In this document: in pieces, positions 4,919-64,000 of the stretch | Layout of the letters: each line of letters starts with the position of its first letter | How positions within the stretch are numbered: position 1 is the stretch's first letter | DNA from: an uncultured Eubacteriales bacterium | GTDB taxonomy: Bacteria > Bacillota > Clostridia > Peptostreptococcales > Anaerovoracaceae | Length of the DNA stretch: 64,000 nucleotides | Assembly: GCA_900315895.1 (NCBI GenBank) | Contig: ONAY01000002.1 | Coordinates: forward strand, 7,165 to 71,164 | Direction: 5' to 3' | Position numbers and translations under genes: made by a program | Notes under the pieces: model-generated | The model's database searches: none | Told to the model about the DNA's origin: nothing | What the model saw: only the letters and a program-made list of their open reading frames with translations

Positions 4919-4943
4919 TAGTGTGTGCCTCCTTTGTCAGTAA

Positions 4944-11358: not shown

Positions 11359-11365
11359 ATCAGCT

Positions 11366-14839: not shown

Positions 14840-14843
14840 GATC

Positions 14844-15488: not shown

Positions 15489-15547
15489 TGATTTTATCCA
15501 CAGCCAGTGCTAAAATTGTATACGATTTGATCTTTATGGAGGAAATC

Positions 15548-16933: not shown

Positions 16934-16940
16934 AAAACTA

Positions 16941-46329: not shown

Positions 46330-47547
46330 TCAATCTCCCATTGCAAGTGCGAGCACTCTTTTTACGTCTTCTTCAGTGTATGTGACCGGTGTGGGATACA
46401 GCGGGACCGCTTCCTTTACGGCTCTCCTTGCGATCTCATCCATGTCTTCCGGTCTTAGATCTTTAAACTTGGGATCTATTCCAAGGCTTCTGTTCAAAGC
46501 TCTTATTTTATCGATGAACTTAAGGGCGATCTTCCTGTCGTCGGATCCATCATCCTCTACCACTCCTGTACGTGTTGCCAGCTTTGCCAACGGTCTGTAT
46601 GCGGCCTTTCCGTAATCCAGAAGGACCAGAGGAAGAAGCGCAGCCATGCACTGACCGTGGGGCAGATGATAGATGCCTCCGATGCCGTGGCCGATGGCGT
46701 GGACATATCCTACGCAGGCCACCGTAAAGGCCTCTCCTGCCTCAAAAGATGCCTTCAGCATGATTTGCCTCACCGCAATATCCTCCGGCTCCTGACAAGC
46801 TCTCTCAAGATACTTGAATATCTTTGATACCGCAGATTCGCAGAGCTCCTTGGTGTCAGCCTTATGATATGGAGCGTTAAGATAAGCTTCTACCGCGTGA
46901 GTCAAGGCATCCATTCCGGTCATAGCTGTCACGCTCTTTGGAAGGCTGACTGTAAGCTTCCCGTCCAGTATAGCATATTTTGGGCAAAGTGAGAGATCAC
47001 TTACTGTAAACTTATAGTTTTTTGTCTCGTCGGTAATGACTGCCGCAATGGTGCATTCTGATCCCGTGCCGGCAGTGGTGGGCACGGCGATCATGAGAGG
47101 CGTCTTCCTTCCGACCTTCATTAAGCCCTTCAGCTTTCTGAGGTCTGAGCGGGGTCTTGCGATAAGACAGGCCGCGCCCTTCATGGCATCCATGGGAGAG
47201 CCACCTCCTATGGCGATCATTGAGTCACACTCTTCGTCCCTGTACATCCGGGCGATCTCTTTGACATGGGCGATATCAGGATCATTATTTATGATCCCGC
47301 ATACCACCGGTTCAAACTTGTTTTCAAAAAGAGAGTCCATTATCCCTTTAAAATAGTCTCTCTGAACGGTGCCCGGACTCGTGACAATTAGCGGTCTCAC
47401 CTTGCCTTCGGCTTCAAGTATGTCCTTGAGCTTTCCCGATGACCCCGGACCCTCGTACAATACCGGTCTTGGGATGTTAATGGCCTTCATTCCAAGTCCC
47501 ATGCCGGCATGCACTATCTTCATTGTGGTTTTCTTCGCGCTAGTCAT
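46330..47547 (-). CDS. Iron-containing (group III) alcohol dehydrogenase
   Basis: IAIGGGSPMDAMKGAA and the metal His cluster VHAIGHGIGGIYHLPHG. ATG at 47547 follows GAGGTGA. Confidence 0.9.
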   Translation of the reverse strand: MTSAKKTTMKIVHAGMGLGMKAINIPRPVLYEGPGSSGKLKDILEAEGKVRPLIVTSPGTVQRDYFKGIMDSLFENKFEPVVCGIINNDPDIAHVKEIARMYRDEECDSMIAIGGGSPMDAMKGAACLIARPRSDLRKLKGLMKVGRKTPLMIAVPTTAGTGSECTIAAVITDETKNYKFTVSDLSLCPKYAILDGKLTVSLPKSVTAMTGMDALTHAVEAYLNAPYHKADTKELCESAVSKIFKYLERACQEPEDIAVRQIMLKASFEAGEAFTVACVGYVHAIGHGIGGIYHLPHGQCMAALLPLVLLDYGKAAYRPLAKLATRTGVVEDDGSDDRKIALKFIDKIRALNRSLGIDPKFKDLRPEDMDEIARRAVKEAVPLYPTPVTYTEEDVKRVLALAMGD

Positions 47548-47549
47548 GA

Positions 47550-49148
47550 TCACCTCATCATAGCAAAATTCTTTTTGTTGGCCTTGTAAAGGTTCTTAAA
47601 CACTTCAAAGTTTCTGTCATATATCTCCTTTGAAGAGCTATCCGGTTCGAAGGTCTTAACTGCAGGTATCATATCATCCGCATCTTCCACTGAGCCTATA
47701 AGCCCCAGGCCCACCGCACAGAGCACTGCAGCTCCCATGGACCCTACGTTCTGAGGCTCATCGCAGACTTCAACCCTTCTTCCGGTTATATCCGCCAGGA
47801 TCCTGCAGGTGGCATCGGACAGAGCCCCTCCCCCGCAGAACCTTATGACAGGTGATGTCTCGATCTTTTTGTCCTCGCACTCCAGCATCCATCTGAGATG
47901 ATAACATATTCCCTCTGTTACCGCTCTAAGCATTTCAGTCTTACCTGTATCCAGGGTTATGCCGAAGAATATCCCCTTTGAATCAGGATCCTCAAAGGGA
48001 CAGCGATTGCCGTGAAGCCAGGGGGTGAATATGACCCCGCCTGCTCCCGGAGGTGCGCTGAGGATGACTTCAGACATGTAGTCATAGAGGCTGGAATAAA
48101 CTTTCTCACGATTCTCAGGGCCTTCAGAGCAGACGTCCTTCTTATCCAGATAGATACCTATCTCATCCAGAGCCAGATGATCCTTGACCCATTCCAGACA
48201 CTTGCCGGCCGTCTCCATCTCCGCAAAATACAAGTAATTGTGCTTCGATGCTCCAACTATGGCCGCTATCATGGAAGTGGCGTCCACTGTCTGCTTCTCG
48301 CAGACCGTGCCCACCCAGCCGGATGTGCCGGCATACATGTGAGTCTTGCCAAGACCGGCTGCTCCCGTACCTATTCCTATGAGGGAAGCGTCGCCCCCTC
48401 CTCCGAATACAGGAGTACCCGGTTCAAGTCCAAGTTCCAAAGCCTGCTTTTTTCTGAGCGGCCCTACTATATCCGTGCTCTCGATTATTTCAGGAAGGTG
48501 GGCCTCATCGATGCCAAAGGTCTCGCAAAGTTCAGTGCTCCATCCCTCCTTGCCGTCTCTTGTGCAGTAGAGCATAGTTGAAAAGGCGCTGTCGCGAGTC
48601 ATGACAGCTCTTCCTGTCATTCTCATTATAAGGTATTCCTTGACATCAAGCCACTTATATATTTTGCTGTAGACCTCAGGTTCGTTGTCCTTCACCCAGA
48701 GGTATTTCCACTGGGGATCCTTGACGCTTCCTGAGACCGCCCCTGTAAGGGACAGTGACCTGAGAAGCTTAAGAGCATTCATTCCTTCCACCTTAAGGCC
48801 GGTCCTGATCCCCTTGTTTATCTGTTCCGTAGCCCTCTGATCCATGTAGCTCATGGCCGGTCTCAGAGCATTGCCTTCCCTGTCCACAAGGACCAGTCCC
48901 TGCATCTGCGAACAGAAGGATATTCCCGAGATCTCCTTTGTATCTATTCCGGTGTGGGCCAGAAGATCGCCGGTGCTTTTGACCATGGCATCCCACCATT
49001 CATCGGGATCCTGCTCGGCGCCGCCGTTTGGCAATGTGCGAAGCCCGTAACCGTAAGAGCTTCCATATATCATCTTTATACCATCGCGCCACTGATAAAG
49101 GCATGTCTTGATGCCTGTGGTCCCCACGTCATAAGATAAAAAATACAT
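47550..49148 (-). CDS. FGGY-family carbohydrate kinase
   Basis: LSYDVGTTGIKTCLY N-terminal phosphate-1 motif, GGGDASLIGIG, CGGGALSD. Confidence 0.88.
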   Translation of the reverse strand: MYFLSYDVGTTGIKTCLYQWRDGIKMIYGSSYGYGLRTLPNGGAEQDPDEWWDAMVKSTGDLLAHTGIDTKEISGISFCSQMQGLVLVDREGNALRPAMSYMDQRATEQINKGIRTGLKVEGMNALKLLRSLSLTGAVSGSVKDPQWKYLWVKDNEPEVYSKIYKWLDVKEYLIMRMTGRAVMTRDSAFSTMLYCTRDGKEGWSTELCETFGIDEAHLPEIIESTDIVGPLRKKQALELGLEPGTPVFGGGGDASLIGIGTGAAGLGKTHMYAGTSGWVGTVCEKQTVDATSMIAAIVGASKHNYLYFAEMETAGKCLEWVKDHLALDEIGIYLDKKDVCSEGPENREKVYSSLYDYMSEVILSAPPGAGGVIFTPWLHGNRCPFEDPDSKGIFFGITLDTGKTEMLRAVTEGICYHLRWMLECEDKKIETSPVIRFCGGGALSDATCRILADITGRRVEVCDEPQNVGSMGAAVLCAVGLGLIGSVEDADDMIPAVKTFEPDSSSKEIYDRNFEVFKNLYKANKKNFAMMR

Positions 49149-49151
49149 AAA

Positions 49152-49778
49152 TCACTCCCCCATTCCGAAGGCACCCCGGACGAACTTAAGGATCTGTTCC
49201 TTGAGCTCAGCGTCTGACGGATCATGCCCCAGATAAAGTCTCATCCTCTCCTCATAGTATTTCGAGCTGAGGCTGAAATTTATCATCATAAGTATGTCAT
49301 CGAAGAGCAGCGCAAAAAACTTAGGGTCCATATCCTCCCTTACGAGCCCTGCTCTGACCCCATCCTCCAGAAAGCTCACATAAAGCTTCGAAGAGCTGCC
49401 TTCTATCCTGGAAGACAGTTTAACAGCTTCTTCGCTGTTCTGAGTAAGGGTTATCTGATGGTACAGTCTGAAGTATTCGGGATGCTCTCTGGATGCGATC
49501 ACCGCCAGTTCAACCAGCCGTTCAAGACCGTCTTCCAGACCAATTGTGGTGGAACCCAGCCTGGTGTAAACATCCTCAAGATAGTCCATACAGTGCTCCA
49601 GGCAGGCATTGAACAAGGCTTCCTTGTCTTCGTAATACTTGTATATCACTCCCGCTGAAAGCCCTGCAGAACGGGCTATGGAAGTTATCTTAGCCCTTCC
49701 ATAGCCCTGTTCGCCGAATTCCTCTATGGCACAGGTAAGGATCATGTTCCTCTGTTCTTCAGTGAGTTTCTTTAACAT
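49152..49778 (-). CDS. TetR/AcrR-family transcriptional regulator
   Basis: HTH region ILTCAIEEFGEQGYGRAKITSIARSAGLSAGVIYKYYEDKEALF. Overlaps the upstream aldolase gene by 20 nt. Confidence 0.88.
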   Translation of the reverse strand: MLKKLTEEQRNMILTCAIEEFGEQGYGRAKITSIARSAGLSAGVIYKYYEDKEALFNACLEHCMDYLEDVYTRLGSTTIGLEDGLERLVELAVIASREHPEYFRLYHQITLTQNSEEAVKLSSRIEGSSSKLYVSFLEDGVRAGLVREDMDPKFFALLFDDILMMINFSLSSKYYEERMRLYLGHDPSDAELKEQILKFVRGAFGMGE

Positions 49779-50805
49779 TTCCCTTATCCTTCTGCTTGGA
49801 ATACTTATTTACATAGATATAGTGTTCAAGGGAGGCCTGAGCCGGGCTCAGCGCTCTGATACCCTTTTTAAGGCCCAGATCCGCCGCCTGACACTGTTTT
49901 TCCAGAAGTATGGCTATTGCCTCGGCCTCTTCTCTGTCAGGGGCTGTAACGAAGGCTCCTTCGCCCTTCACAAGAGTGGCAGAACGCTTTCCTCTGAAGC
50001 TCCTGGGGATTATGAATTTTTTGCGCCCCATAACATCCTTGCATCTTATGACGGATCCCACCATCTGGGCCATGTCTTCGATGTATATGGGAAGGTCCTT
50101 ACCTCTCAAACTCATTTCCATTACGAAGGGGGTCTTGACCTGGATAACGTGAGTCGCGCTGTCTTTTCCGCCGAAACATCCCTTGTACAGTGTATTGTTT
50201 TTGAGGTTGTAGGGACGGATCTTGTCCCCGGTGCGCCTCTCGAATAACTTTCCTGCAGTCTTTTCCAGTTCCCTTGTGACCGCCATGGCTTCCTCAAAAG
50301 ATCCGCCGAAGCAAAGTGTTCCGTGGTAAGGAAGGAGCATCGCCTTGACCTTGGGATATTTCTTAAGAGAAGCGCTCACATTCTTTACCAGCTTATCTGT
50401 GGAGGTCATGGCGTATCTTGACGTAGGGATCACTCCACCGGGAAGATCGCTTTCAAGACGTGTGATCTTGATGTCCTCCTGAAGGATGCTGATGGAAGAT
50501 GCGTTTACGGAGTGGGCATGGATGACGAATTCAGCCTCCGGCCTAAGACCATATACTGCCGCATGAACGCCCTTCTCGCTGGAAGGTTTTATGTCTCCCT
50601 CGTAGGAACAATCCTTGATCCTGACCTCCACCAGATCTTCCGGTGTCAGGCTGTCGTAGGCTCTTCCCGAGGGTGTGATAAGAAAGCTGTCCTCTGAGAT
50701 CCTGGCGGAGATGTTCCCCCAGGTCCTGGCGATGAGGCCTTCCTCTATAAGCTTAAGTCCTGCATCGATGACCAGTCTCGATGCCTCTTCTTTTGTATAT
50801 GCCAT
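49759..50805 (-). CDS. Class II aldolase/adducin-family protein, two-domain
   Basis: N-terminal domain has GNISARI, SSEKGVHAAVY, HAHS and PYHG (Glu plus 3 His metal set). The C-terminal half (about 150 aa) is aldolase-like but lacks these residues. ATG at 50805 follows AGGAGGA. Confidence 0.8.
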   Translation of the reverse strand: MAYTKEEASRLVIDAGLKLIEEGLIARTWGNISARISEDSFLITPSGRAYDSLTPEDLVEVRIKDCSYEGDIKPSSEKGVHAAVYGLRPEAEFVIHAHSVNASSISILQEDIKITRLESDLPGGVIPTSRYAMTSTDKLVKNVSASLKKYPKVKAMLLPYHGTLCFGGSFEEAMAVTRELEKTAGKLFERRTGDKIRPYNLKNNTLYKGCFGGKDSATHVIQVKTPFVMEMSLRGKDLPIYIEDMAQMVGSVIRCKDVMGRKKFIIPRSFRGKRSATLVKGEGAFVTAPDREEAEAIAILLEKQCQAADLGLKKGIRALSPAQASLEHYIYVNKYSKQKDKGNVKETH

Positions 50806-50822
50806 CTCGTCCTCCTTATGGA

Positions 50823-52304
50823 TCAGTCCAGTCTGCCGCACTTCGAGAATACTCTGTCGAATCTGGCAATGACATCATCGATCATTTCCTCATTGTAGGC
50901 TGCCGATGTATAAAGTCTGGAGCCTGCCAGGGTCACGATACCCTCTGCCATGTATGCGGCTCCGATGTGTTCCATCTCGATCTGACGTCTGCCTGTCTGC
51001 TTCAGAACTTCAGGAAGCTTCCAGGGCTTGGACCAGTCGATGGAATAGTGCATGGTGCCCACCGTATCCACGTGGCAGATGGATCCCTGATTGAATACTA
51101 CGAATGGCAGTTCGTATTTTTCAACGGACTGTTTGATGCCGGCCACCAGTCTGTCTGCCATTCTGCCGGCCTTCTCGCAGGCATTGGTCTTCTCGATCTC
51201 GCAGATGGTGTAGTATCCTGCGCAGCTGGAGATAGGTGTGGCTGCCATGGTGCCTCCGCAGAGAGCTTTTTTGATCTTCTTGCCGGATGAATCAAGGCCG
51301 GCGCCCAGATGCTGCATGCAGTCTCTGTGTCCGCCCAGGCCGCCTGCTCCCGGGTATCCTCCTGCAATGACCTTTCCGAAAACTGTGAGGTCCGGATCCA
51401 CTCCGAAATAACCCTGGGCTCCTGCTGTACCAATACGGAATCCTGTAACCACTTCATCGAAGATGAGAAGTGCCCCGTACTTGTGAGCCAGCTCCTCGCA
51501 GCCTCTTATGAACTCTCTGGAAACCGGCCAGGTGCCGCTCTCAGGTCCCACAGGCTCAACGTAGACTGCAGCTGTGCCGCCTCTTAACTTATTCCTTTTT
51601 AACTTCCTCTCCAGATCATCCAGATCATTGGGGAAGAATTCGTCTGTATGACCGAATACGTAGGACGGTATTCCTCTTGACTGGAGTCCCTTGGTTCCCG
51701 GGATCCTGATGCCGTAGGCCAGCTGATCGGACCAACCGTGATAGGCTCCGCCCATCTTGAGAACATTGAGGTGACCGGTCTTGAGCCTTGCCACCCTCAG
51801 GGCGCACATGCAGGCTTCTGTGCCGGAGCCCAGCATCCTGAACATCTCCACTGAAGGAACCAGTTCGGATATCTTAGCGGCCAACTTGTATTCATACTCA
51901 TGGAAAAGTCCAGTGGATGGTCCGCATGTGTTGAGCAGGTCTATTACCTGTTCCCTTACAACATCCGGATTGCTCCCCAGCACCGTCGGTCCTCCTGCCT
52001 GAAGGAGATCGTAATACTCGTTTCCGTCGATATCGTAAAGCTTGGCATCCTTTGCCTTAGTAATAACTATGGGGAACGGATAATTGAAGGCCAGATTGTG
52101 CTGGACTCCTCCGGGTATTATCTCCCTAGCCTCTGTTATTCTCTCCTTGGAACCTGCGCATTTCTTCTCAAAATACTCAGAAACGTACTCTTCAAGTGCC
52201 TCCGGCTTGATACCGTAGACCGGAAGCTGGATGAGAGCATCCAGTTTTCTGTTTATGATATCTGCATCGGGATACTTATCGATCGCAAATCCGTTATAAG
52301 CCAT
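50823..52304 (-). CDS. Class-III PLP-dependent aminotransferase/aminomutase (GSA-aminomutase-like, long form)
   Basis: GSGTEACMCALRVAR, FDEVVTGFRIG, PLP-Lys in TVFGKVIAGGYP. ATG at 52304 follows GGAGGA. Confidence 0.85.
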   Translation of the reverse strand: MAYNGFAIDKYPDADIINRKLDALIQLPVYGIKPEALEEYVSEYFEKKCAGSKERITEAREIIPGGVQHNLAFNYPFPIVITKAKDAKLYDIDGNEYYDLLQAGGPTVLGSNPDVVREQVIDLLNTCGPSTGLFHEYEYKLAAKISELVPSVEMFRMLGSGTEACMCALRVARLKTGHLNVLKMGGAYHGWSDQLAYGIRIPGTKGLQSRGIPSYVFGHTDEFFPNDLDDLERKLKRNKLRGGTAAVYVEPVGPESGTWPVSREFIRGCEELAHKYGALLIFDEVVTGFRIGTAGAQGYFGVDPDLTVFGKVIAGGYPGAGGLGGHRDCMQHLGAGLDSSGKKIKKALCGGTMAATPISSCAGYYTICEIEKTNACEKAGRMADRLVAGIKQSVEKYELPFVVFNQGSICHVDTVGTMHYSIDWSKPWKLPEVLKQTGRRQIEMEHIGAAYMAEGIVTLAGSRLYTSAAYNEEMIDDVIARFDRVFSKCGRLD

Positions 52305-52348
52305 AAATGTCCTCCTGTAACTTATGGAAAATATTTGATATTCATCTC

Positions 52349-52364
52349 GTGAATTTAGATTCAC
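52349..52364 (-). promoter_or_regulatory. Perfect palindrome GTGAAT-N4-ATTCAC, candidate TetR operator
   Basis: 16-bp inverted repeat about 12-27 nt downstream of the -10 element, that is, over the expected transcription start. Confidence 0.5.
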
Positions 52365-54525: not shown

Positions 54526-54558
54526 ATAAAAAACAGGCCGTCCCTTAAGGAACGGCCC
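54526..54558 (-). terminator. Intrinsic terminator after the glycyl radical enzyme gene
   Basis: GGCCGUUCC-UUAA-GGGACGGCC (9 bp) followed by UGUUUUUUAU. Confidence 0.88.
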
Positions 54559-54569
54559 TTAGATCTGAT

Positions 54570-56954
54570 TTATTTGTTGCTTTCAGGCTCAAAGTGAGCT
54601 GTACGGTAGATGATGGTGTCCTGTGCGCTCTTGTCAAGTTCTGTGAAGTAGGCCATGTAACCTGCCACACGTACCATAAGACCTTTGTGCCTTTCCGGAT
54701 TGATCTGAGCATCCTTAAGAGTATCTGTGTCAACAACGTTGATCTGGATGTGCTCGCCACCCTCCTTGAAGAAGGTCTTGATGACTCCCTCGATGTTGGC
54801 AAGTCCTCTTTCTCCCTGAACTCCTCTGGGGTCGAAGCGGAGGTTGAATAAAGCTCCGTCATGGAAGGCGCTCTGATCCATGGCTGCTACGGACTTAACT
54901 GTAGCTGTAGGACCGCTAACGTCTCTTCCCATCATGGGTGAAGCGTTGTCGCAGAAGGGTTCGCCCTTCTTACGTCCGTCGGGAGTTGCACCTGTCACCA
55001 GACCGTGGGATACGTTTACTGTCTGAGAGTGAACGTTGAAGGAATACCATCCTCCTCTGGCATCAGGCCACTTCTGAACGTTATCGGCGATGAAGTGCAT
55101 CATCTCACGGTAGATGCCGTCAACGTACTCGTTGTCGTTACCGAACTTAGGCGGCTTGTTCAGAAGAAGCTGACGTATACGCTCCTGACCTTCGAAGTTG
55201 TTATCGCAGGCCCGGATAAGCTCGTCCATGGTGATGTCCTTATCCTTGAAGACGCAGGTGTCGATGGCTGCGATGGAGTCAGCAAGGTTAGCAGCACCTG
55301 TGATGTAAAGTCCGGCTGTGGTGTACTTGGCTCCTCCGTGCTGAACTGAACGTCCGCTTTCAACGCAGCCCTTGGTAAGCATACCTGCGAAAATCACCGG
55401 ATACCTGGTCTGGTGCATGCTCTGCATGACGTTGTATCCGTCACATACCATTCTGTAGTGATGAAGGATCTGCTTCTTAAGAGCAGTCTTAAGGTCCTCA
55501 ACATCCTTGAATTCTCTGGGATCTCCTGTCTTAAGGCCCATGAGTTTGCCTGTATCCGGGTCCACGCCGTTATGAAGTACGAACTCGACCATCTTGCCCA
55601 TGTTGACATAGCCTGCGTCAGGAGAACCATCGGTGGATCCGCCGCCGGGACCAGGCTGGATGCAGCCTACTATGGTCCAGTCGCGAGCTTCTTCAATGGT
55701 GCAGCCCTTTCCAAGAGCCATCTTTATAGCTGTGTTGTCGTTGAAGAATCCCGGGTTGGCCTGTCCATCCTGGATCATCTCGCAACCTTTCCTGATAAGG
55801 TCTTCAGGTGTGCCGTCCCATACTCTGACAGCCATAACGGGCTGAGTGGTCTTGAGCTGATTTGCAGCTTCAAGGCAGAGGTAGGAAAGCTCGTTGGTAG
55901 CATCCTTACCATCCGGAGTCTGGCCGCCTACAACAAGGATCTCCCACATGGGGTATCCTGCAAAGGAAGTAGCATACCAGCGGTCACGGACTTCGAATAC
56001 TTCACAAGCTTTAAGGTAGAAGCACTGAAGCATTTCAAGAGCTTCTTCCTGGGTGATGTTCTTTTCGTCGATGACATCCTTCTTATAGTACGGCCACATG
56101 TACTGGTCGAATCTGCCGAATCCATTGGCTGTCGTGCACACTTCGATGTGGAAGTAAACGTGGGCGAACCAGATCATCTGAAGAGCCTGCCAGAATGTCT
56201 TAGGAGGATTCTCAGGAACCACTCTGCAGTTCTCTGCGATCATGAGCAGTTCTTTCTTTCTCTTCTCGTCGGTGCATTCCGCAGCCTGACGTTCAGCCTC
56301 ATCAGCCATTCTGTGGGCATATGTGATCAGGCCCTGGCACTGAATAATGCAGGCCTGCCAGAAGTTCTTCTTCTCTTCGTCAAGCTGACACTTGGGATAC
56401 AACGCATCGATGTTTCTCTGGCACTCTTCCATATATCCTTTGAGTCCTACGGTGAGAAGTTTCTCATGGTCGCAGGTGGTCTCACCGGATACTCCGTTGG
56501 TGAGGCCAACTGTGATTATGTCATCCTCCATGCACTCAACAGTGTGCTTGGGAAGTGCGGACTTGGCGATATCCTGCATGGCCTTTCCTTCCCAATAAGG
56601 CAGGCACTCAAGGATCTTCTCTCTGTCCTCAGGTGAGACATCGTAGGGGTCCTTAGTTCTTACCGGGAACTCGTCAAGTTCTTCAAGATAGAATTTGGTG
56701 CTGGACTGAAATTCCGGATGAAGATTGGCTCCTAAAAATTTATTGGTAGGTGTGCCTACCACGAGTTCGTCTTCCATGATGAGTGTTGTCATGTGCTCCA
56801 TGATGTAGTTGACGACCTTGGCACGGAAGATGGGCACAGCCTCTCCTGCGAATTTTTTATATGCTTCAGTCTGAAGCACTAACCTTTCAGAAGTGATGCA
56901 GGGTCTTGAATCCCAAAGTTTGTTGCGCATTTTCTGAAGACGTTCATTAAGCAT
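54570..56954 (-). CDS. Glycyl radical enzyme, PFL2/glycerol-dehydratase-like family, substrate unknown
   Basis: Glycyl radical motif LMVRVAGYMAYFTEL near the C-terminus. Cys loop WTIVGCIQPGPGG (Cys codon 55662-55664, Gln codon 55656-55658). ATG at 56954 follows GGGAGGA. Confidence 0.95.
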   Translation of the reverse strand: MLNERLQKMRNKLWDSRPCITSERLVLQTEAYKKFAGEAVPIFRAKVVNYIMEHMTTLIMEDELVVGTPTNKFLGANLHPEFQSSTKFYLEELDEFPVRTKDPYDVSPEDREKILECLPYWEGKAMQDIAKSALPKHTVECMEDDIITVGLTNGVSGETTCDHEKLLTVGLKGYMEECQRNIDALYPKCQLDEEKKNFWQACIIQCQGLITYAHRMADEAERQAAECTDEKRKKELLMIAENCRVVPENPPKTFWQALQMIWFAHVYFHIEVCTTANGFGRFDQYMWPYYKKDVIDEKNITQEEALEMLQCFYLKACEVFEVRDRWYATSFAGYPMWEILVVGGQTPDGKDATNELSYLCLEAANQLKTTQPVMAVRVWDGTPEDLIRKGCEMIQDGQANPGFFNDNTAIKMALGKGCTIEEARDWTIVGCIQPGPGGGSTDGSPDAGYVNMGKMVEFVLHNGVDPDTGKLMGLKTGDPREFKDVEDLKTALKKQILHHYRMVCDGYNVMQSMHQTRYPVIFAGMLTKGCVESGRSVQHGGAKYTTAGLYITGAANLADSIAAIDTCVFKDKDITMDELIRACDNNFEGQERIRQLLLNKPPKFGNDNEYVDGIYREMMHFIADNVQKWPDARGGWYSFNVHSQTVNVSHGLVTGATPDGRKKGEPFCDNASPMMGRDVSGPTATVKSVAAMDQSAFHDGALFNLRFDPRGVQGERGLANIEGVIKTFFKEGGEHIQINVVDTDTLKDAQINPERHKGLMVRVAGYMAYFTELDKSAQDTIIYRTAHFEPESNK

Positions 56955-57028
56955 TTTAGTTCCTCCCATTATTCGATCTGTGACCGACATAAATATATAG
57001 AGTGTTAAAATCTCATTATTGCAGCTTT

Positions 57029-57058
57029 ATTATACTAAATCGGCAAAACTGTCGGCAA
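57029..57058 (-). promoter_or_regulatory. Candidate promoter of the glycyl radical enzyme gene
   Basis: Minus strand TTGCCG-18 nt-TATAAT, about 70 nt upstream of the ATG. Confidence 0.45.
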
Positions 57059-57118
57059 GGTTATTGTTGCGACAAAACGGTATTGAATTGCGAACTGTCC
57101 GCAAATAATCGCAAAAGA

Positions 57119-57150
57119 ATAAAAAAAGACCTGCTCACTTGGAACAGGTC
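57119..57150 (-). terminator. Intrinsic terminator of the tRNA operon
   Basis: GACCUG-UUCCAAGUGAG-CAGGUC followed by UUUUUUUAUU, 8 nt after tRNA-Cys. Confidence 0.7.
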
Positions 57151-57158
57151 TTCTCTCG

Positions 57159-57233
<75 letters not shown>

Positions 57234-57265
57234 ATGGTGCCGGGCTATGCTGTCCGGCTGAATAT

Positions 57266-57340
57266 TGGCTAGGGTAGCAGGATTCGAACCTGCGAATGAC
57301 GGAATCAGAATCCGTTGCCTTACCGCTTGGCGATACCCCA
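57266..57340 (-). tRNA. tRNA-Gln (CUG)
   Basis: TGGGGTATCGCCAAGCGGTAAGGCA..ACGGATTCTGATTCCGT..GCAGGTTCGAATCCTGC..TACCCTA-G-CCA; U1-A72 pair as in bacterial tRNA-Gln. Confidence 0.9.
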
Positions 57341-57353
57341 ATAAACAAAAAAA

Positions 57354-57430
57354 TGGGGTGGGTAGTGGGATTCGAACCCACGAATACAGGAGCCACAACC
57401 CTGGGTCTTAGCCGCTTGACGATACCCACC
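57354..57430 (-). tRNA. tRNA-His (GUG)
   Basis: Extra G-1 (GGTGGGTA..), anticodon loop TTGTGGC, T-arm GTGGGTTCGAATCCCAC, C73, CCA encoded. Confidence 0.9.
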
Positions 57431-57450
57431 ATATTATTAAGTTCGAAAAA

Positions 57451-57527
57451 TGGCGACCAAGATCGGGCTCGAACCGACGACCTCCAGCGTGACAGGCTGG
57501 CATTCTAACCAACTGAACTACTTGGCC
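57451..57527 (-). tRNA. tRNA-Asp (GUC)
   Basis: GGCCAAGTAGTTCAGTTGGTTAGAAT..CCAGCCTGTCACGCTGG..GTCGGTTCGAGCCCGAT..CTTGGTC-G-CCA. Confidence 0.9.
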
Positions 57528-57530
57528 ATG

Positions 57531-57606
57531 TGGTGGGAGTTACAGGGCTCGAACCTGTGACCCCCTGCTTGTAAGGCAGATGCTCTCCCAGCTGAGCTAA
57601 ACTCCC
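57531..57606 (-). tRNA. tRNA-Val (UAC)
   Basis: GGGAGTTTAGCTCAGCTGGGAGAGC..TCTGCCTTACAAGCAGG..ACAGGTTCGAGCCCTGT..AACTCCC-A-CCA. Confidence 0.9.
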
Positions 57607-57625
57607 ACACTATGATTGAAAAAAA

Positions 57626-57702
57626 TGGTAGCGGCGACTGGATTCGAACCAGTGACACCCCGGGTATGAACCGAGTGCTCTAGCCAACTGAGCCACGCCG
57701 CC
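57626..57702 (-). tRNA. tRNA with CAU anticodon (elongator Met, or Ile2 if lysidine-modified; not an initiator)
   Basis: GGCGGCGTGGCTCAGTTGGCTAGAGC..CTCGGTTCATACCCGGG..ACTGGTTCGAATCCAGT..CGCCGCT-A-CCA. It has a paired 1-72 position and no GGG/CCC anticodon stem, so it is not tRNA-fMet. Confidence 0.85.
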
Positions 57703-57841: not shown

Positions 57842-59935
57842 CTATGCCCTTCTGGTCAGCATGGTGACAGTCGATAGCATACTGAGAAGTACTCCCAAGG
57901 TGACAATATGAAATACCATACCATTTGAGCCGGTATCAGGAAGGCCGTGCATCTTCACATCAACCATGACAACCTTATCAGTCGGTACTCCGCCCACTAT
58001 TGTGTTACCTTCCCTGTCCACTTCGAATTCTACATCTTCAGATGCAAGATATCCTGGAGGCGCAGACTTTTCGATCAAGTAATACGTTCCTTCTGCTAAG
58101 GAAAAGACTGAATGATCATCTTCCGTGGTGGTCCATTCATCCAGTACAGTCCCTTCGCTGTCACATAGCTGAAGTTCTGCTCCGGAAAGGAGGTCACCAT
58201 ATTCATCCACCTTTGAAAGTACAGTTTGGTTTGACACGTACACCACCTCTATGCTGTGGTCACTATGGATATCGTTGAACTGATATGAGTCGGTATAAAG
58301 AGATATATCCTGAGATTCACCATCCACCGTGACTGTGCTTAGGTGATGTCCGGGATCAGGTGAATATTCTACCAGTCCGTCCTCTCCTTCCCATAGTGAC
58401 AGATCATCTGTGATGGTTCCATTGGTCACGGCAGTTGATACAGTATACCTTTTACCATAAGTTACCGTTACATGGTGGTCGGCCTGCACATTCTCAAAAG
58501 TGTAGCCTTCTTCGTGGCCGGATGTGTCTATCTGCGTCCCGTCCACATCCATGCTCTTAAGTACGTATCCTTCGTTTCCATGGTACGTTAGGTCCACCCT
58601 TCCTCCCGGGGCCACCCAGTATGATGCTTCACTTTCTGTATCCGAATCCCCTGCTCGGCCATTTATTACCGTAAGATCGATCCTGTACTTTCTGTCAAAT
58701 TCCACCTCATACCGATAGTCCTGCTGAATATTGGTAATAGGCATAATATAAGGATCTGAATTCATCACCTCATTTGCACTATAGCTTCGGACCAGGGTCT
58801 CCCTGGAATGAGGGCCCACTGAATATAGTCTTACGGCAGAGATATAGTATTCGTCCGCAGGATCTATAACGCAATTTACGTTCATCCCGCAGGATACCGT
58901 AACATCCACAGGGTCGATACTGCCTTCTCCTCTTATGATCTTTCCCTTCACATTATAGTACTTGGCGAATTCATAGGCCTCCTGACCGATGATGGTGGTT
59001 CCAAGAGACCTGAAGCCAAACCATCTGAGGGTGCTTCCGGTAGAGTCGAACAGCGCAGCAAAACCCGATCTCCAGGTGTTTTCATCCGCAACAGTTCCGC
59101 ATATCCGGTAGCAGTTTTTTGCTCTATCAAAAGAAACATCCGTGATGGTATTCGGCTCCATATAGATCGTCGGTTCCTCCCTGTTGGTTCCGCTTAACAC
59201 TCCGGATATTATGTTGTAACCCTCTAAATATGAATCGAAATCTCTTGATCCGTAAAGAAGGGATCCCTTTGGAGCATTATCATCAGTTCCCGGCATAACG
59301 ACTCTGAATTCATACTCGTACTCCACCTTATATCTTCCGTATGAAGTGGGAGCATGGGTCGTAGAACCGTAATTGTCATAGGCCGTAGGATTAGTCGATA
59401 TAATAGGGTCATTTTTCTCCTGATAATAGAACAGATTGACTCCTACCAAGGGGTCCCTTGTGCAGTATGCCGGGTCAGGCGTAATGATCAGATTCTTGAT
59501 CAAAAGGATCAGGTCAAATCTGTCGCCGGCTCCGTTCTTAACAGAATCAGCGATCCTGACCATCGCTATATCTCCCGGTATCTCCTTGGACTCGGTATTG
59601 TCTCCGAAGCCTCCTCCCGTATAGATAAGTGAGGTCATATAGCAATCGTGAAGACCACCCTTGTAATAGTACCTTTTCAGCTGAAATAGCTCTGTGTTTA
59701 GAAGATCGATTGAAATCTTGTCTGAAGAAGCGGGGTTGCCGTAGATATAATCATAGCCGGTCACATTTTCCACACCCGTTGTCCTGTCAAGAACAAGATC
59801 ACCTTCGGAATAGATCCCGGGAGTAAAGGCAGGCACACTTTTTCCTGCCAAAGGATCGTCTTCTCCAAAAACCGAAGTGATAGGCAATAGGGTCAGCACT
59901 AAGGCAAACATTATCACAATTATCTTTTTCATCAT
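57842..59935 (-). CDS. LPXTG-anchored surface protein, candidate pilus tip adhesin
   Basis: Signal peptide MMKKIIVIMFALVLTLLPITSVFGE, about 300-aa N-terminal region with no motif I recognise, tandem Ig-like repeats. CnaB-type domain with E-box-like YYLIEKSAPPGY; sorting signal LPDTG + hydrophobic helix + RRA. Confidence 0.8.
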   Translation of the reverse strand: MMKKIIVIMFALVLTLLPITSVFGEDDPLAGKSVPAFTPGIYSEGDLVLDRTTGVENVTGYDYIYGNPASSDKISIDLLNTELFQLKRYYYKGGLHDCYMTSLIYTGGGFGDNTESKEIPGDIAMVRIADSVKNGAGDRFDLILLIKNLIITPDPAYCTRDPLVGVNLFYYQEKNDPIISTNPTAYDNYGSTTHAPTSYGRYKVEYEYEFRVVMPGTDDNAPKGSLLYGSRDFDSYLEGYNIISGVLSGTNREEPTIYMEPNTITDVSFDRAKNCYRICGTVADENTWRSGFAALFDSTGSTLRWFGFRSLGTTIIGQEAYEFAKYYNVKGKIIRGEGSIDPVDVTVSCGMNVNCVIDPADEYYISAVRLYSVGPHSRETLVRSYSANEVMNSDPYIMPITNIQQDYRYEVEFDRKYRIDLTVINGRAGDSDTESEASYWVAPGGRVDLTYHGNEGYVLKSMDVDGTQIDTSGHEEGYTFENVQADHHVTVTYGKRYTVSTAVTNGTITDDLSLWEGEDGLVEYSPDPGHHLSTVTVDGESQDISLYTDSYQFNDIHSDHSIEVVYVSNQTVLSKVDEYGDLLSGAELQLCDSEGTVLDEWTTTEDDHSVFSLAEGTYYLIEKSAPPGYLASEDVEFEVDREGNTIVGGVPTDKVVMVDVKMHGLPDTGSNGMVFHIVTLGVLLSMLSTVTMLTRRA
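58235..58687 (-). repeat. Two clear tandem ~75-aa protein repeats inside the adhesin (a third, degenerate copy extends to about 58960)
   Basis: aa 417-496 and 497-567 share Y.(I/V)...V.NG......G......Y....G..L....VDG.........Y.F..(V/I)..DH.(V/I).V.Y. Confidence 0.55.
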
Positions 59936-60564
59936 ACCTTGCTACCTCCTTCCTCACTTCTTGAGATCAACAGGCCTACAAGAAGCATCACCGATGAAAT
60001 TAATAATACGGTCTCACCTCTTAATCCCATTTCATCTCCTGTCTTGGGATTGACCTTATCCTTTAAAATAGTTGTCTTGGGGTAGCAGACTACGTCATAG
60101 CCTTCTTCGCTTGGAACCGATATCAAAAAGGGCTTCGCGGTTTCACACTTCTGAGACATTCCCTTTCCTCCTGTTTGAGTCACAAGATATATGCCCGTCT
60201 CAAGGTCCGGAAATCTTATGATTCCATCCTTGTCCGTGGTTCCTTGGATGTCCCAGTCATCCCTTCCTTTTGAGAGTTCTTCGGCCAACAGAGCCGTTTC
60301 TTCAGCTGACAATTTAAAAAGGTTCACCTGTTCCTTATTACCTTCTGAAGGCAGCTTCCCTTCGTAGTCCGTTACTCTCTTAATACCAAACACTGCCCCA
60401 TCTATATTTGTGACTTTACCTCCATCACTTACCCTGTAGCAAATCTCCAGGCTACCGGTCTTCCCTTCCGCCAATACATAGCAGGGAAAGAGGGCTATAA
60501 AAAAGATCGCCAAAGCTATGGCGATCCTGATATGTTTCTTGTTATTGATTCCTCCATACATCAT
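59932..60564 (-). CDS. Small single-domain pilin with canonical pilin motif and NPKTG sorting signal
   Basis: Signal peptide, CnaB-like DKDGIIRFPDLETGIYLVTQT, PFLISVPSEEGYDVVCYPKT (pilin motif VxVYPK). NPKTG + TM (VLLISSVMLLVGLLI) + charged tail. Confidence 0.75.
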   Translation of the reverse strand: MMYGGINNKKHIRIAIALAIFFIALFPCYVLAEGKTGSLEICYRVSDGGKVTNIDGAVFGIKRVTDYEGKLPSEGNKEQVNLFKLSAEETALLAEELSKGRDDWDIQGTTDKDGIIRFPDLETGIYLVTQTGGKGMSQKCETAKPFLISVPSEEGYDVVCYPKTTILKDKVNPKTGDEMGLRGETVLLISSVMLLVGLLISRSEEGGSKV

Positions 60565-61424
60565 TCACTCTCCTGTCTATTTTTTGATGTTATAGATATT
60601 GTTATTAAAACCACTGCAGATAAACTTATGATGAGCATGGTAAGGTACAGCGGAAGCCCATGTTTTGCGTCATCCACCGGATCTGTCCTTTGCACTTCAT
60701 TTGGAACTCTCTTTCCCCTGACCAGAAGCCTTTTGGTATTGATGCCGTAGGGTGTACAAGTCAGAAGGGTCACATAGTCTTTGTCGGGTTCTATCTTTAG
60801 AGCCTCGATCTCATCAGGCTCCACTACCGTTATCTGATCCACCTCATATGTCAGGATGCGATCCACAACGTGGATGTAGAATCTGTCACCCTCCTCCAGT
60901 TGATCCAAGTCCGTAAACAATCTTGCTGAAGGCAGCCCTCTATGAGCGCATAGTACGGAGTGGCTTCCCAAACCTCCTACGGGAAGAGAGGTGCCTTCTA
61001 TGTATCCAACACCCTTCTCCAGCACCTCTTCCCCCGTTCCATGATAAATGGCCAAAGTCTCGTTTATCTTCGGTACATCCAGATATCCCATTACCCCTGT
61101 ACCCTGCGGGTCCAGAAGACTTGAGTAGGAATCTGAAAGCCCATCATGGCAGTCATCTGAAAATGCATCCTTCACATAGTTTCTTTTATGGGTACTGTTG
61201 TATGCCAGTGCTTCAAGGTACATTGAATCATTTTCATCTTTTCCAGCGTCAGATATGGCATCTTCATATGCCACCGCCACCTTGAGATTCCTTTCGCGGT
61301 TGATCAGGTTGCTTACCGTAGGATAAAAAACGAAAGCTGCTCCGGCAACATAAAGGGCCAGGATCATGATCATCATTGGTCTATTTGCCTTCCCATGGCT
61401 GAGATCTGTCCTTCTCCTTCTCAT
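60561..61424 (-). CDS. Class C (pilin-polymerising) sortase
   Basis: N-terminal TM, VLCAHRGL (His), TLLTCTPYGINT (Cys), LLVRGKR (Arg), C-terminal TM LYLTMLIISLSAVVLITISI typical of class C. Confidence 0.92.
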   Translation of the reverse strand: MRRRRTDLSHGKANRPMMIMILALYVAGAAFVFYPTVSNLINRERNLKVAVAYEDAISDAGKDENDSMYLEALAYNSTHKRNYVKDAFSDDCHDGLSDSYSSLLDPQGTGVMGYLDVPKINETLAIYHGTGEEVLEKGVGYIEGTSLPVGGLGSHSVLCAHRGLPSARLFTDLDQLEEGDRFYIHVVDRILTYEVDQITVVEPDEIEALKIEPDKDYVTLLTCTPYGINTKRLLVRGKRVPNEVQRTDPVDDAKHGLPLYLTMLIISLSAVVLITISITSKNRQESE

Positions 61425-62968
61425 CCTTTCTCAGGTCTTGAAGCTCTTCTCCCAGTCACAAGGATGGTTCCTGCAAGGATGGCAGTAATACCTATGATCG
61501 AGTAGATCACCGTGCCTGTTCCACCTGTTGCGGGCAGATTTTTAAATGCAGTGTTTGGGATGTTCCCGTCCTTACCATCAGCCAAAGGAGTGGAAGTATA
61601 CGTTTTATTCATAAAATCATTTCCATCCTGATCAGTAATGGTGACTGTATAGCTGGAAAGTGTTTTGTCTGAGCCGTATACAGGACTTATTGTGACCGTG
61701 TAGGTATTCTGGTTAACTGCATATCCTTCCGGGGCCTTTGTCTCTCTCATGGTGTATGTGCCCTCTGACAAACCGGAGAAGTGAACGATACCATCATCAT
61801 TTGAAGACTCCAAGTATGAAACATCGTCTCCTGTTGTATTGGTGCCTGTAAGACTGAATCCTGCCCCCGGGAGGGCCAGTTCACTATCCTTTGAGTCCAC
61901 CTTGGTAAAGCTCAGATCGAATGAGTACACTACAGATTCTGCCTTGGGGCTTCCCGGATCAGAGGGATCATCATATGCCGTTGCTCCTCCCTGAGATGAT
62001 GGATCGTTTGAATAGACTATCTTCACCCTGTTATAGTTTCCCTGGAAGTCCAGTCCCGCATCTTCATTGAGGATTCCTTCGTACTTAATGGTCACCGATG
62101 TGCCCCCATGGGAAAGTACCCAGGCCGATTTAAAGTCTACCGTCAGGGTCTGGCCGGTAAGGCTTACCTCATAATTTGTCTTATCCACTACAGTTCCTGC
62201 TGCGTCCTCAACGGACACAGAGCTCTCATTGAATGTAAGTCCGGGATCTGCCGTATCCACCATTCTGAATGTCACGTTTTTGTAGACGGACTCATCATAG
62301 CTGGGTATGGCTGTGGTGACCACGTAATCAATGGTGTCATTGTATGAAAAAGATCTGATACCATCTTCTGTTTCCTTGGTCACCGTAACTTTAGAATGCT
62401 TGACCTCCGTGACTCCCCCTGTAACTGTCCAGCTTCCTGTGCTCATATCAAGTGAGCCTGCGCATATCTTGGATTCATTGTCATATCCAATGGATACGAT
62501 GGCAGGATTATAGATGTTTCCGCTAACACCCTTGACCAGCACTAGATACATTCCGGCTCCCAGGTCACCGGATCTGTAGGTGCATGCACTGGACCCGTCG
62601 CCCAATTGATGAGAGTCCGCAGGTGTCACATCGCTGAGCTCCAGTGCAGGCAGAACAAGGCTCCCATCCTGGATATCGCAGGTAATGGCCTGCACTTCTT
62701 CCAGTGTGGGCTCTTCAAGATCTGCGATGGAAACTCCTGCAACCGTTTCATATCCTGTAAGTCCAGCAGATGAATAGCCGGCATCTGCGATCTTGTAGGC
62801 CTTGACCGTGGCACCATGTTCGATGTTGGTCACCGCAATAGTCTGTGTGTCCTCAGCTGAAGGCATAGACGAAGCTTGGATCGATGCCGATACTGATGCA
62901 GGACATAATGCCATCGCCATTACCGCTGCGGACACCGCAGTCTTTGCTAATAGTTTTTTGAATTTCAT
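61421..62968 (-). CDS. LPXTG-anchored isopeptide-domain fimbrial protein (major-pilin-like)
   Basis: Signal peptide MKFKKLLAKTAVSAAVMAMALCPASVSA, VTVTKETEDGIRSFSYNDTIDYVVTTAIPSY, CnaB domain with E-box YTMRETKAPEGY. LPATG + TM + RRASR. ATG at 62968 follows GGAGAG. Confidence 0.85.
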   Translation of the reverse strand: MKFKKLLAKTAVSAAVMAMALCPASVSASIQASSMPSAEDTQTIAVTNIEHGATVKAYKIADAGYSSAGLTGYETVAGVSIADLEEPTLEEVQAITCDIQDGSLVLPALELSDVTPADSHQLGDGSSACTYRSGDLGAGMYLVLVKGVSGNIYNPAIVSIGYDNESKICAGSLDMSTGSWTVTGGVTEVKHSKVTVTKETEDGIRSFSYNDTIDYVVTTAIPSYDESVYKNVTFRMVDTADPGLTFNESSVSVEDAAGTVVDKTNYEVSLTGQTLTVDFKSAWVLSHGGTSVTIKYEGILNEDAGLDFQGNYNRVKIVYSNDPSSQGGATAYDDPSDPGSPKAESVVYSFDLSFTKVDSKDSELALPGAGFSLTGTNTTGDDVSYLESSNDDGIVHFSGLSEGTYTMRETKAPEGYAVNQNTYTVTISPVYGSDKTLSSYTVTITDQDGNDFMNKTYTSTPLADGKDGNIPNTAFKNLPATGGTGTVIYSIIGITAILAGTILVTGRRASRPEKG

Positions 62969-63010
62969 TTCTCTCTCCTTTTCCCTTTTGAAATATTGTG
63001 TATTTTGTGT

Positions 63011-63039
63011 ATAAAAAAACGGCATATGAAATGCCGTTT
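63011..63039 (-). terminator. Intrinsic terminator after the DHHW gene
   Basis: AAACGGCAU-UUCAU-AUGCCGUUU (9 bp) followed by UUUUAUAC. Confidence 0.8.
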
Positions 63040-63065
63040 GATTATCGTATTAAACTGAATCTATA

Positions 63066-64000
63066 CTATCCCCTTATCACTGTGTCCAGTTTTCCAACAA
63101 GATATGATGACCTGGTCATCCCGATGTTGTTCACGAAGATCACATCTTTGATACCATGCTCTTTTGCATAGTTTATGGCGTTTACAGATGTGTATCTGTA
63201 GTCCATAACGATCACCATGTGATAGTGGTCCACAAGGTAAGGAACGAAGCAGTTTCCGAAGGATTCCTTGATCACAAGGCATGCTGAATCATCCTGACGG
63301 TCCTCATTTACCAGTACTCTGAAGTCTCCGTCACCGCCAATGAAGGAATTGTACTTGAAAGAAATATCATAGTTGCTGTAATCAGGTATGATCTCTTTCT
63401 TCGCATCGTTTCCATCTCCGTCCTTTCCGACCATGTAAGAATTGGAGATCGGATAATATGCAACCAGATCATCGGGATTTGCCTGAAGCGCAGCACTCTT
63501 GGTGTCATAGTAGAAGGTTCCAAGGTAGCTTCCCATATCCTTCGCAGGTCTTCTGTCCAAAGAGATGGGAAGTAAGCCCTTTGCGTCGCAAAATACCTCG
63601 TAGGCATAGTATGCTCCCATGCTGGTCCAGTGATGGTCCGTTCTGAAATAGATATACTTATCTCTGTTCTCCATGAGATGATCATAGATGTCCAGATTGA
63701 TAACGTTATCATTGAACTTGGAATAAAGGTTGTCCAGTGCGGTGCGCTGATTTGATCCCTTCATCTGATCCTTGTATGCATCGGGGACGGTGATACCCGC
63801 AGATGTGGGCACAATCATAGCATAAACATTGGCGCTTCCCTTAAGCTGGTCTGCTGCATAGTTTACGATATCGCAGTAGCGTGCGGCAGTTCCTTCCACA
63901 TAATCATATATCTCAAATGCTGCGTCACCGATTATAGCGATGAATCCGCTATAGCTCAGATCTCCTGTGGCGTTTATGACGGGATAAGTCTTTTCGTCCA
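63066..64000 (-). CDS. DHHW-family (AlgX/AlgJ-like SGNH) protein, 5'-truncated by the window edge
   Basis: FRTDHHWTSMGAYYAYEVF motif. The ORF-track start at 63899 is GTG, but the frame stays open through 64000 (..DEKTYPVINATGDLSYSGFIAIIGDAAFEIYDYV-EGTAARY..), so the true start lies off-window. Confidence 0.75.
   Translation of the reverse strand, partial: DEKTYPVINATGDLSYSGFIAIIGDAAFEIYDYVEGTAARYCDIVNYAADQLKGSANVYAMIVPTSAGITVPDAYKDQMKGSNQRTALDNLYSKFNDNVINLDIYDHLMENRDKYIYFRTDHHWTSMGAYYAYEVFCDAKGLLPISLDRRPAKDMGSYLGTFYYDTKSAALQANPDDLVAYYPISNSYMVGKDGDGNDAKKEIIPDYSNYDISFKYNSFIGGDGDFRVLVNEDRQDDSACLVIKESFGNCFVPYLVDHYHMVIVMDYRYTSVNAINYAKEHGIKDVIFVNNIGMTRSSYLVGKLDTVIRG

Follow-up and report, generated by a model that had tools for sequence, protein, structure and literature searches.

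A 64,000-nucleotide stretch of DNA from an uncultured Eubacteriales bacterium (contig ONAY01000002.1; hereafter 'the window', by which we mean the whole of this stretch) encodes a glycyl radical enzyme (GRE) with a glutamine at the position of the catalytic glutamate of the Cys loop, and no activating enzyme (activase) for it. This raises the question of what reaction such an enzyme may carry out, and how its glycyl radical may be installed. In the gut, GREs are responsible for several reactions that bear on health or agriculture, namely choline's conversion into trimethylamine, the use of hydroxyproline, the release from isethionate of the sulfite that gives rise to H2S, and the production of p-cresol and skatole; to our knowledge, many GRE clades are still without an assigned function. 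The explanation that we consider best overall, with a probability of roughly 0.55, is that the window encodes a GRE with a Glu158/Gln433 active-site pair, that its gene is a satellite activated in trans, and that the enzyme would catalyse a radical elimination or isomerisation on a nitrogen-bearing substrate.

A glycyl radical enzyme with an exchanged active-site pair

The gene in question (54570-56954 on the minus strand, stop codon included) encodes a protein of 794 residues, which starts with MLNERLQ and is identical to database protein P0001; use of an alternative in-frame ATG further upstream, at 56990, would result in 806 residues. The Pfam domains PF02901 (PFL-like) and PF01228 (Gly_radical) span residues 3-651 (E-value 1.9e-195) and 669-771 (E-value 2.1e-29), respectively. 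Conservation was assessed with the 120 best database matches (79-100% identity; 'database homologues'), and with 78 sequences from genomes ('genome orthologues') that provided residue and codon counts. The glycyl radical site, Gly765 (codon 54660-54662, minus strand), is located within RVAGYMAYF (R762-F770), a Gly loop of the RVxG[FWY] type that was invariant in all 120 database homologues and in 77 of the 78 genome orthologues. The thiyl-radical cysteine is Cys431 (codon 55662-55664, minus strand) of the Cys loop IVGCIQPGPGG, as judged by structure alignments made with HMMER against the sequences of solved structures. Cys431 was found in 78 of 78 orthologues, and it aligns with Cys433 of glycerol dehydratase (GDH) and with the catalytic cysteines of HplG, propanediol dehydratase (PD) and HypD. 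An AlphaFold2 model, computed from an alignment of 32 sequences with 79-96% identity (mean predicted local distance difference test score, pLDDT, of 71.7), superposes on GDH and HplG with TM-scores of 0.89-0.90. The model supports the fold only, because the pLDDT was below 50 in every active-site loop. The window protein is an intact GRE with the full PFL-like fold, Gly765 and Cys431. A GRE of 794 residues with these two loops, and with a CAG codon at 55656-55658, had been described in an earlier reading made from the letters of the window (hereafter the sequence-only reading), and this description was borne out.

The CAG codon at 55656-55658 (minus strand) specifies Gln433, which occupies the position of the CXE glutamate, since GCIQP aligns onto GCVEP of 1r8w, 9rco and 5i2a, onto GCIEP of HplG (7vua) and onto GCVET of HypD (6vxc). 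The Cys-loop motif is thus C-I-Q. According to a review of June 2026, all characterised GRE eliminases and isomerases keep the CXE motif. The Cys loop reads GC[IV]QP in 120 of 120 database homologues, and Gln433 was kept in 78 of 78 genome orthologues, where it is encoded by CAG in 74 cases and by CAA in 4. A sequencing error would have required the misreading of only one base (CAG instead of GAG), but the presence of Gln in every member of both sets and the use of both codons allow us to dismiss this possibility. The homologue counts and structure alignments confirm that Gln replaces the catalytic-loop Glu, as the sequence-only reading had proposed. The GCVE loop, which the same reading ascribed to characterised PFL2-type enzymes, is indeed that of the eliminases and isomerases, but not that of PhdB, which has a C-x-Q loop.

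The sequence-only reading missed, however, a coupled exchange on strand beta1 that is equally important for the mechanism. Glu158 (codon 56481-56483, minus strand) aligns with His164 of GDH and is invariant in the clade, its codon being GAG in 39 and GAA in 36 orthologues. The beta1 site, which is structurally equivalent across GREs (PMC8473560), is occupied by His164 in GDH, His160 in HypD, Asp216 in CutC and Gln193 in IslA, so that the beta1 histidine of the GRE dehydratases (GDH, PD and HypD) is a glutamate in the window clade. In HypD, His160 lies 2.5 Å from the CXE residue Glu436 (PMC7077986). A long-form CutC representative has Asp where the window protein has Glu158, and in both proteins the catalytic Cys follows at an offset of 273 residues. 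The combination of residues at the two sites was examined in an alignment of 150 sequences, made up of the window protein together with its 149 closest 50%-identity cluster representatives in which the catalytic Cys was aligned. A beta1 His was present in 102 of these, a Glu at Cys+2 in 114, and both in 89. Only 3 sequences had a beta1 Glu, and 2 of those also had Gln at Cys+2, namely the window protein and its 54%-identical sister P0121; a C-x-Q loop was found in 8 sequences, including a few other uncharacterised clades. The window clade has thus swapped the His/Glu active-site pair for a Glu/Gln pair, which is rare among these 150 sequences. Gln433, Glu158 and RVAGYMAYF have been conserved (120/120 and 77-78/78) through synonymous codon changes.

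The window clade and its characterised relatives

None of the curated models claims the window GRE. It marginally misses the cut-off of TIGR01774 (PFL2-3 subfamily; 673.7 versus 678.2 bits), and its scores with the equivalog models are about half of the respective cut-offs or less: 597 bits for HypD, the best of these (cut-off 1100), 540 for HpfG/HpsG (1000), 535 for PflD (1109), 516 for CutC (1050), 455 for IAD (1100), 324 for HPAD (1150) and 138 for PFL (994). Among the solved structures, the best matches are GDH (601 bits), HplG (580 bits) and the propanediol dehydratases (553 and 546 bits), while decarboxylases and X-succinate synthases score far lower (342 bits for the AAD structure). The nearest characterised relatives are therefore eliminases and isomerases, not decarboxylases. 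A characterised member of the clade itself was not found in the literature that we searched, which left out most subscription-journal articles, so that a recent characterisation is possible. As far as the curated models and this searchable literature go, the suggestion that the GCIQP clade lacks an assigned function thus stands.

The nearest of 1.84 billion cluster representatives have identities of 54%, 43% and 43%, followed by others of 40% or less, and the window clade is well separated from its neighbours. The sister at 54% identity, P0121, shares with the window protein the beta1 Glu, a C-T-Q loop, RVAGYMAYF and a context of AraC, GRE, activase, SDR (short-chain dehydrogenase/reductase) and transporter, but it has Thr/Met where the window protein has Asn640/His642. 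P0122 from Emergencia (43% identity) likewise has a C-x-Q loop (C-V-Q), but it has kept the beta1 His and is set among other GREs, pyrroline-5-carboxylate (P5C) reductases and a B12-binding/MutL pair. On the Emergencia-like contigs concerned (L086-L088, 38-19928), this 788-residue protein is part of a GRE island with an activase, two tandem 785-residue GREs, a C26 peptidase, LysR, a second activase, a MutL-like protein, a B12-binding protein, GntR, two P5C reductases and a 2-hydroxyacid dehydrogenase. This suggests that several proline-derivative pathways lie side by side in the island, one of them with a C-x-Q enzyme.

A scan of genomes, one per species, yielded 319 matching stretches, of which the best 80 were used as loci. 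These come from about 77 species-representative genomes, and their GREs are 72-96% identical to the window GRE. They belong mainly to Anaerovoracaceae and Oscillospiraceae from human, chicken, mouse and ruminant guts, and the carriers include Emergencia timonensis, Hornefia butyriciproducens, Ihubacter, Aminicella lysinilytica, Oscillibacter sp. 1-3 and Flavonifractor; the closest locus is that of a reindeer rumen metagenome-assembled genome (96% identity). In some of the clade's 90%-identity clusters, the members number in the hundreds and stem from human, chicken and ruminant guts.

When the window protein is aligned to GDH, its predicted pocket contains Glu158 in place of His164, Thr275/Ala276 in place of His281/Ser282, Phe331 at Phe333, Trp337 at Tyr339, Gln433 at Glu435, Asp446 at Asp447, Tyr449 at Phe450 and His642 at Tyr640; Asn640 and Gln644 are further predicted pocket residues without an assigned GDH equivalent. 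Three pocket variants occur in the clade, which suggests related but distinct substrates. The variant Asn640/His642 is accompanied by an SDR or an aldo-keto reductase (AKR), the variant Gly640/Asp642 by a different NhaC-like transporter with no reductase found nearby, and the third variant is Ser640/Leu642.

Comparison with the best-studied systems reveals both similarities and differences. HplG (7VUA) is the second-best match among the solved structures (TM-score 0.90) and, like HypD (6VXC/6VXE), acts on an amino-acid substrate, as we also propose for the window clade. Tyr450 of HypD corresponds to Tyr449 of the window protein; however, the required residues His160, Glu436 and Asp278 of HypD correspond to Glu158, Gln433 and Ala276, and no P5C reductase was found in the window-clade loci. 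CutC resembles the window protein in having an acidic beta1 residue, Asp216, at an offset of 273 residues from the Cys, but it has kept its CXE residue Glu491, which is essential (E491Q is inactive), and the microcompartment context of CutC is absent from the window clade.

Genomic context of the clade and of the stand-alone copy

The gene content of the loci was determined by calling open reading frames (ORFs), clustering the products, identifying them with Pfam and NCBIfam, and then placing them by tblastn. The ORF caller was a simple one, which missed genes in some loci. An activase gene adjoins the GRE gene in 71 of the 80 loci (tblastn). It encodes 310 residues and begins 4-382 bp past the GRE stop codon in 70 of the 80, while in Hornefia it is located divergently upstream. 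The best model for these activases is that of the HypD-activase, with 313 bits versus a cut-off of 425. The usual unit comprises a divergent AraC-type regulator, an SDR or AKR, the GRE, the activase and an amino-acid-type transporter. The regulator, an AraC/cupin protein of 620 residues, is usually encoded upstream of the unit, and the SDR or, alternatively, AKR gene lies 20-60 bp before the GRE gene or elsewhere in the locus. The transporters belong to four unrelated amino-acid types, namely APC permeases (best match NCBIfam NF008094/PRK10836, 'amino acid permease'), NhaC/ArcD-like proteins, YfcC and AGCS (alanine/glycine-type symporter). Part of the loci have extra genes for a CoA-disulfide reductase-rhodanese fusion and for C_GCAxxG and DUF2284 proteins, and some for M20 amidohydrolases, a DDAH-like protein or a glyoxalase-fold protein.

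A few genes near the GRE recur in certain loci only. A protein of about 256 residues with the DDAH/arginine-deiminase fold is encoded next to or near the GRE in L001-L003, L050 and L059, of which L001 has no activase. A few kb downstream of the GRE-activase pair, corrinoid-binding, MttB-superfamily methyltransferase-like and further methyltransferase-like genes (clusters c13, c19 and c29, identified by eye) were seen in the Anaerovoracaceae loci L051, L056, L058, L060, L063 and L074. These could reflect shared genome ancestry or a link with methylated amines. A riboswitch might have been a clue to the substrate; however, neither the window region nor any of six canonical loci yielded an Rfam family other than tRNA.

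In the 64-kb window, no activase was detected. The only proteins with a CX3CX2C motif are the TIGR03960 protein, RimO and MiaB, and a tblastn search of the window with an orthologue's activase gave zero matches, in line with what had been noted from the letters. Neither were any remnants of activase, regulator or reductase genes found near the window GRE at E-values of up to 0.01. The counts given above nevertheless contradict the idea that a missing activase is a property of the family. Four of the nine loci without an adjoining activase are truncated contigs, and L006, L011, L043, L069 and L073 lack it despite ample flanks, as do the window and L001. In a neighbour-joining tree, the window protein and that of L006 nest among canonical rumen loci, with which they share identical pocket residues, and the stand-alone state is therefore derived; the missing activase is specific to the window lineage. 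The arrangement of the window (pilus genes, tRNAs, GRE and S9 peptidase) recurs on at least 22 metagenome contigs from different samples. In Oscillibacter sp. 1-3, an activase-less locus (L069) and a canonical locus with activase (L071) are located about 40 kb apart on one contig. L043 has two GREs of the clade (10001-12373 and 14617-16977), which are separated by 2.2 kb, share 80% and 72% identity with the window protein and differ in pocket variant; no activase was found within this locus of 17.7 kb.

The window GRE gene has its own predicted signals, all on the minus strand. A sigma-70-like promoter (TTGCCG-18-TATAAT, 57029-57058) is found at the homologous position in orthologous loci, a Shine-Dalgarno sequence GGGAGG (56962-56967) lies 7 nt 5' of the ATG at 56954, and 12 nt past the stop codon there is an intrinsic terminator with a 10-bp stem that includes 7 GC pairs, followed by a T-run (54535-54558). 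Consensus matches to promoters and terminators are no more numerous in the region than chance would predict, but the positions of these two fit the GRE gene, and both signals claimed in the sequence-only reading could thus be located.

At 8 nt upstream of the -35 box lies a direct repeat GCAA-N17-GCAA, GCAATTCAATACCGTTTTGTCGCAA (57067-57091, minus strand), in which the GCAA elements are spaced by 21 bp. The strict motif GCAANNNARTNNNNTTTTNNNGCAA matches this site only, once in 64 kb where 0.01 matches are expected. In 44 of 74 orthologous loci, a looser form, GCAA-N16-18-GCAA, occurs upstream of the gene with which the operon begins, compared to 2.3% of background windows. Of the 48 matches to the strict motif in 1.36 Mb of loci, 38 are located at most 300 bp upstream of SDR, GRE, AKR or NhaC-like genes, and most others fall at genes that the ORF caller had missed. 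The motif also precedes an operon for a glyoxalase-fold protein, a symporter and an SDR, and it precedes the activase-less copies in L006, L043, L045 and L069. Position and geometry of the repeat fit the site of an AraC-type activator, which we presume it to be. As a link of the GRE to the reductase and the transporters, the motif is stronger than mere adjacency, and its presence upstream of the window GRE implies that this gene answers to a regulator encoded elsewhere.

We consider it most likely that the stand-alone copy, which is probably functional and still in the regulon, is a satellite gene. Its transcription would then be driven in trans by the AraC-type regulator of the clade, and its glycyl radical would be installed by an activase encoded at another place in the genome, in a canonical paralogous locus. 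Since the Gly loop is invariant in the clade and the cross-reactivity of activases tracks Gly-loop identity (PMC13450708), activation by a paralogue's activase is plausible. The pair of loci in Oscillibacter sp. 1-3 may serve as a precedent, by analogy, for an orphan beside a canonical copy. The gene, which has kept the operator-like motif of the family, is monocistronic, as stated in the sequence-only reading, but it is probably not autonomous.

Alternative explanations

The loss of the activase, regulator and reductase genes from the 64 kb is what would be expected of a decaying or silent remnant that can no longer be activated. We regard this as very improbable. A comparison with the 96%-identical orphan orthologue of L006 gave a dN/dS of 0.018 at a dS of 1.2, which shows that the window GRE is under strong purifying selection. 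Furthermore, its catalytic and pocket residues are all identical to those of canonical copies, its promoter, operator-like repeat, Shine-Dalgarno sequence and terminator are intact, and the arrangement has been stable enough to recur in different samples, as described above. If the gene is functional, the enzyme might still be of a known kind, for instance an ordinary B12-independent diol or glycerol dehydratase in which Gln is a tolerated substitution. GDH of Clostridium butyricum (1R8W/1R9D) is the best match among solved structures (35% identity, TM-score 0.89), PD (5I2A, 9RCO) is among the next ones, both share with the window protein the full-length fold and the Gly and Cys loops at about 35% identity, and Asp446 and Phe331 have the same identity in GDH. 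In GDH, however, the base is proposed to be Glu435, with His164 as the acid that serves the leaving hydroxyl (June 2026 review), and precisely these two residues are altered to Gln and Glu, together with His281/Ser282, Tyr640 and Tyr339. Moreover, all curated cut-offs are missed, and genes for microcompartment shells, aldehyde dehydrogenase and 1,3-propanediol dehydrogenase are absent from the loci, where amino-acid transporters and a reductase take the place of a diol pathway. An ordinary dehydratase is therefore an unlikely identity.

A different known precedent is PhdB, an arylacetate decarboxylase that converts phenylacetate into toluene. Among the characterised GREs, no other has a C-x-Q loop. 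The Gln484 of PhdB, two residues after Cys482, is essential, since Q484E, Q484A and Q484L mutants are inactive, and His327, Trp495 and Tyr691 are essential as well (PMC7079210); in PFL and BssA, the position of this Gln is occupied by Ser. In addition, the organisms that host the window clade are amino-acid fermenters and potential producers of arylacetates. The window protein does not appear to be a close relative of PhdB. Its scores with decarboxylases (IAD, HPAD and the AAD structure) are far below those with GDH and HplG, and the numbering C482/Q484/G815 is absent among the 150 nearest cluster representatives. At the offsets of Trp495 (Cys+13) and Tyr691 (Cys+209) the window protein has Ser444 and Asn640, in what is a comparison of offsets only. 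Whereas the pocket of PhdB is hydrophobic (Trp495, Tyr691, Val693), that of the window protein is predicted to be polar and acidic. Lastly, a co-regulated carbonyl reductase and amino-acid transporters would be pointless for decarboxylation to a hydrocarbon. We therefore consider a PhdB-like decarboxylase improbable.

Proposed chemistry

We favour an elimination or isomerisation on a nitrogen-bearing substrate because of the acidic beta1 residue, the neutral amide in the Cys loop, the amino-acid transporters and the interchangeable SDR and AKR. The substrate would be an amine-bearing, amino-acid-like compound, and the reaction a 1,2-elimination or a ring-opening isomerisation. Glu158 may bind or protonate the cationic nitrogen group and supply the acid-base function that has been lost from the Cys loop, while Gln433 would only form hydrogen bonds. 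Reduction of the resulting carbonyl or imine product could follow, catalysed by the co-regulated SDR or AKR. In CutC, the beta1 residue Asp216 faces the cationic trimethylammonium leaving group (PMC8473560).

Several points weigh against this proposal. Replacement of Glu by Gln at the CXE position abolishes the activity of CutC and HypD, which implies that an enzyme with a natural Gln must work differently and cannot be a simple copy of these. The takeover of the acid-base function by Glu158 is a hypothesis, and its contact with Gln433 is predicted from homology. The neighbourhood suggests a class of substrates but is no proof of it, and as the Gly640/Asp642 subclade has no reductase nearby, the logic of a carbonyl product may not cover the whole clade. 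In addition, the activase, regulator and reductase were not found, in a search that was confined to 64 kb of the genome.

Two more specific ideas on the substrate were considered. A 5-hydroxylysine dehydratase had come to mind because of the transporters (the amino-acid permease and those resembling ArcD and YfcC), but this has no support in the literature searched and the regulon also uses an alanine/glycine-type symporter; it is kept only as one candidate. A sulfur compound, which the CoA-disulfide reductase-rhodanese fusion and the C_GCAxxG and DUF2284 proteins had brought up, is a tentative idea, those neighbours being found in only part of the loci. A more far-reaching interpretation, to which we give somewhat less than even odds and which is accordingly tentative, is that the Glu158/Gln433 clade represents an undescribed type of GRE reaction within an AraC-controlled regulon that includes satellite genes activated in trans. 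With an amino-acid-like compound as its substrate, such an enzyme might for example be a ring-opening isomerase, or else a radical lyase that releases ammonia or an amine independently of B12. In that case, strand beta1 would have taken over the acid-base carboxylate from the Cys loop.

Other features of the window

The GRE gene has six tRNA genes upstream and an S9 peptidase gene downstream; a tRNA operon and an S9 peptidase had been noted as its neighbours from the letters. The tRNA array (Met, Val, Asp, His, Gln, Cys; 57159-57702, minus strand) lies directly upstream of the GRE promoter and has its own terminator (57121-57157). A canonical locus, L022, likewise has a six-tRNA array (4815-5376), about 3.4 kb upstream of its GRE, and relocation of the GRE may have taken place with such arrays as the junction. 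An open frame of 407 residues (55413-56636, plus strand) runs antisense to the GRE gene and is most likely a by-product of GRE codon usage; a similar antisense frame over the activase gene misled the ORF caller in several orthologous loci (cluster c21).

Further upstream of the GRE, at 57842-63899 on the minus strand, is a sortase-dependent pilus locus. It encodes SpaA-fold pilins of 697 residues (LPDTG) and 534 residues (T6 Ig-like, Cna-B), a pilin-like protein of 210 residues and a sortase. The minus-strand genes at 46330-52364 encode a class-III aminotransferase-like protein (513 residues), a class II aldolase (360 residues), a TetR regulator, an FGGY sugar kinase, an Fe-alcohol dehydrogenase and then an AMP-binding enzyme. 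This run, which adjoins the GRE in the window lineage only, looks like a pathway of the fuculose/rhamnulose type with an added aminotransferase.

Biological significance

What is new here is a genuine GRE that departs from CXE, with a Glu/Gln pair, a definable regulon and a satellite arrangement. The clade is common in gut and rumen Clostridia, and it breaks the CXE rule by which eliminases and isomerases are defined. The paired change from His/Glu to Glu/Gln provides a specific mechanistic hypothesis that is open to mutagenesis, and cultured carriers are available in Emergencia timonensis, Hornefia butyriciproducens, Oscillibacter sp. 1-3 and Aminicella lysinilytica. The conserved operator-like motif joins the GRE, the carbonyl reductase and the amino-acid transporters in one regulon, which narrows the choice of substrates. 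Lastly, the window illustrates that the gene for the catalytic component of a GRE system can be retained far from that for its activase.

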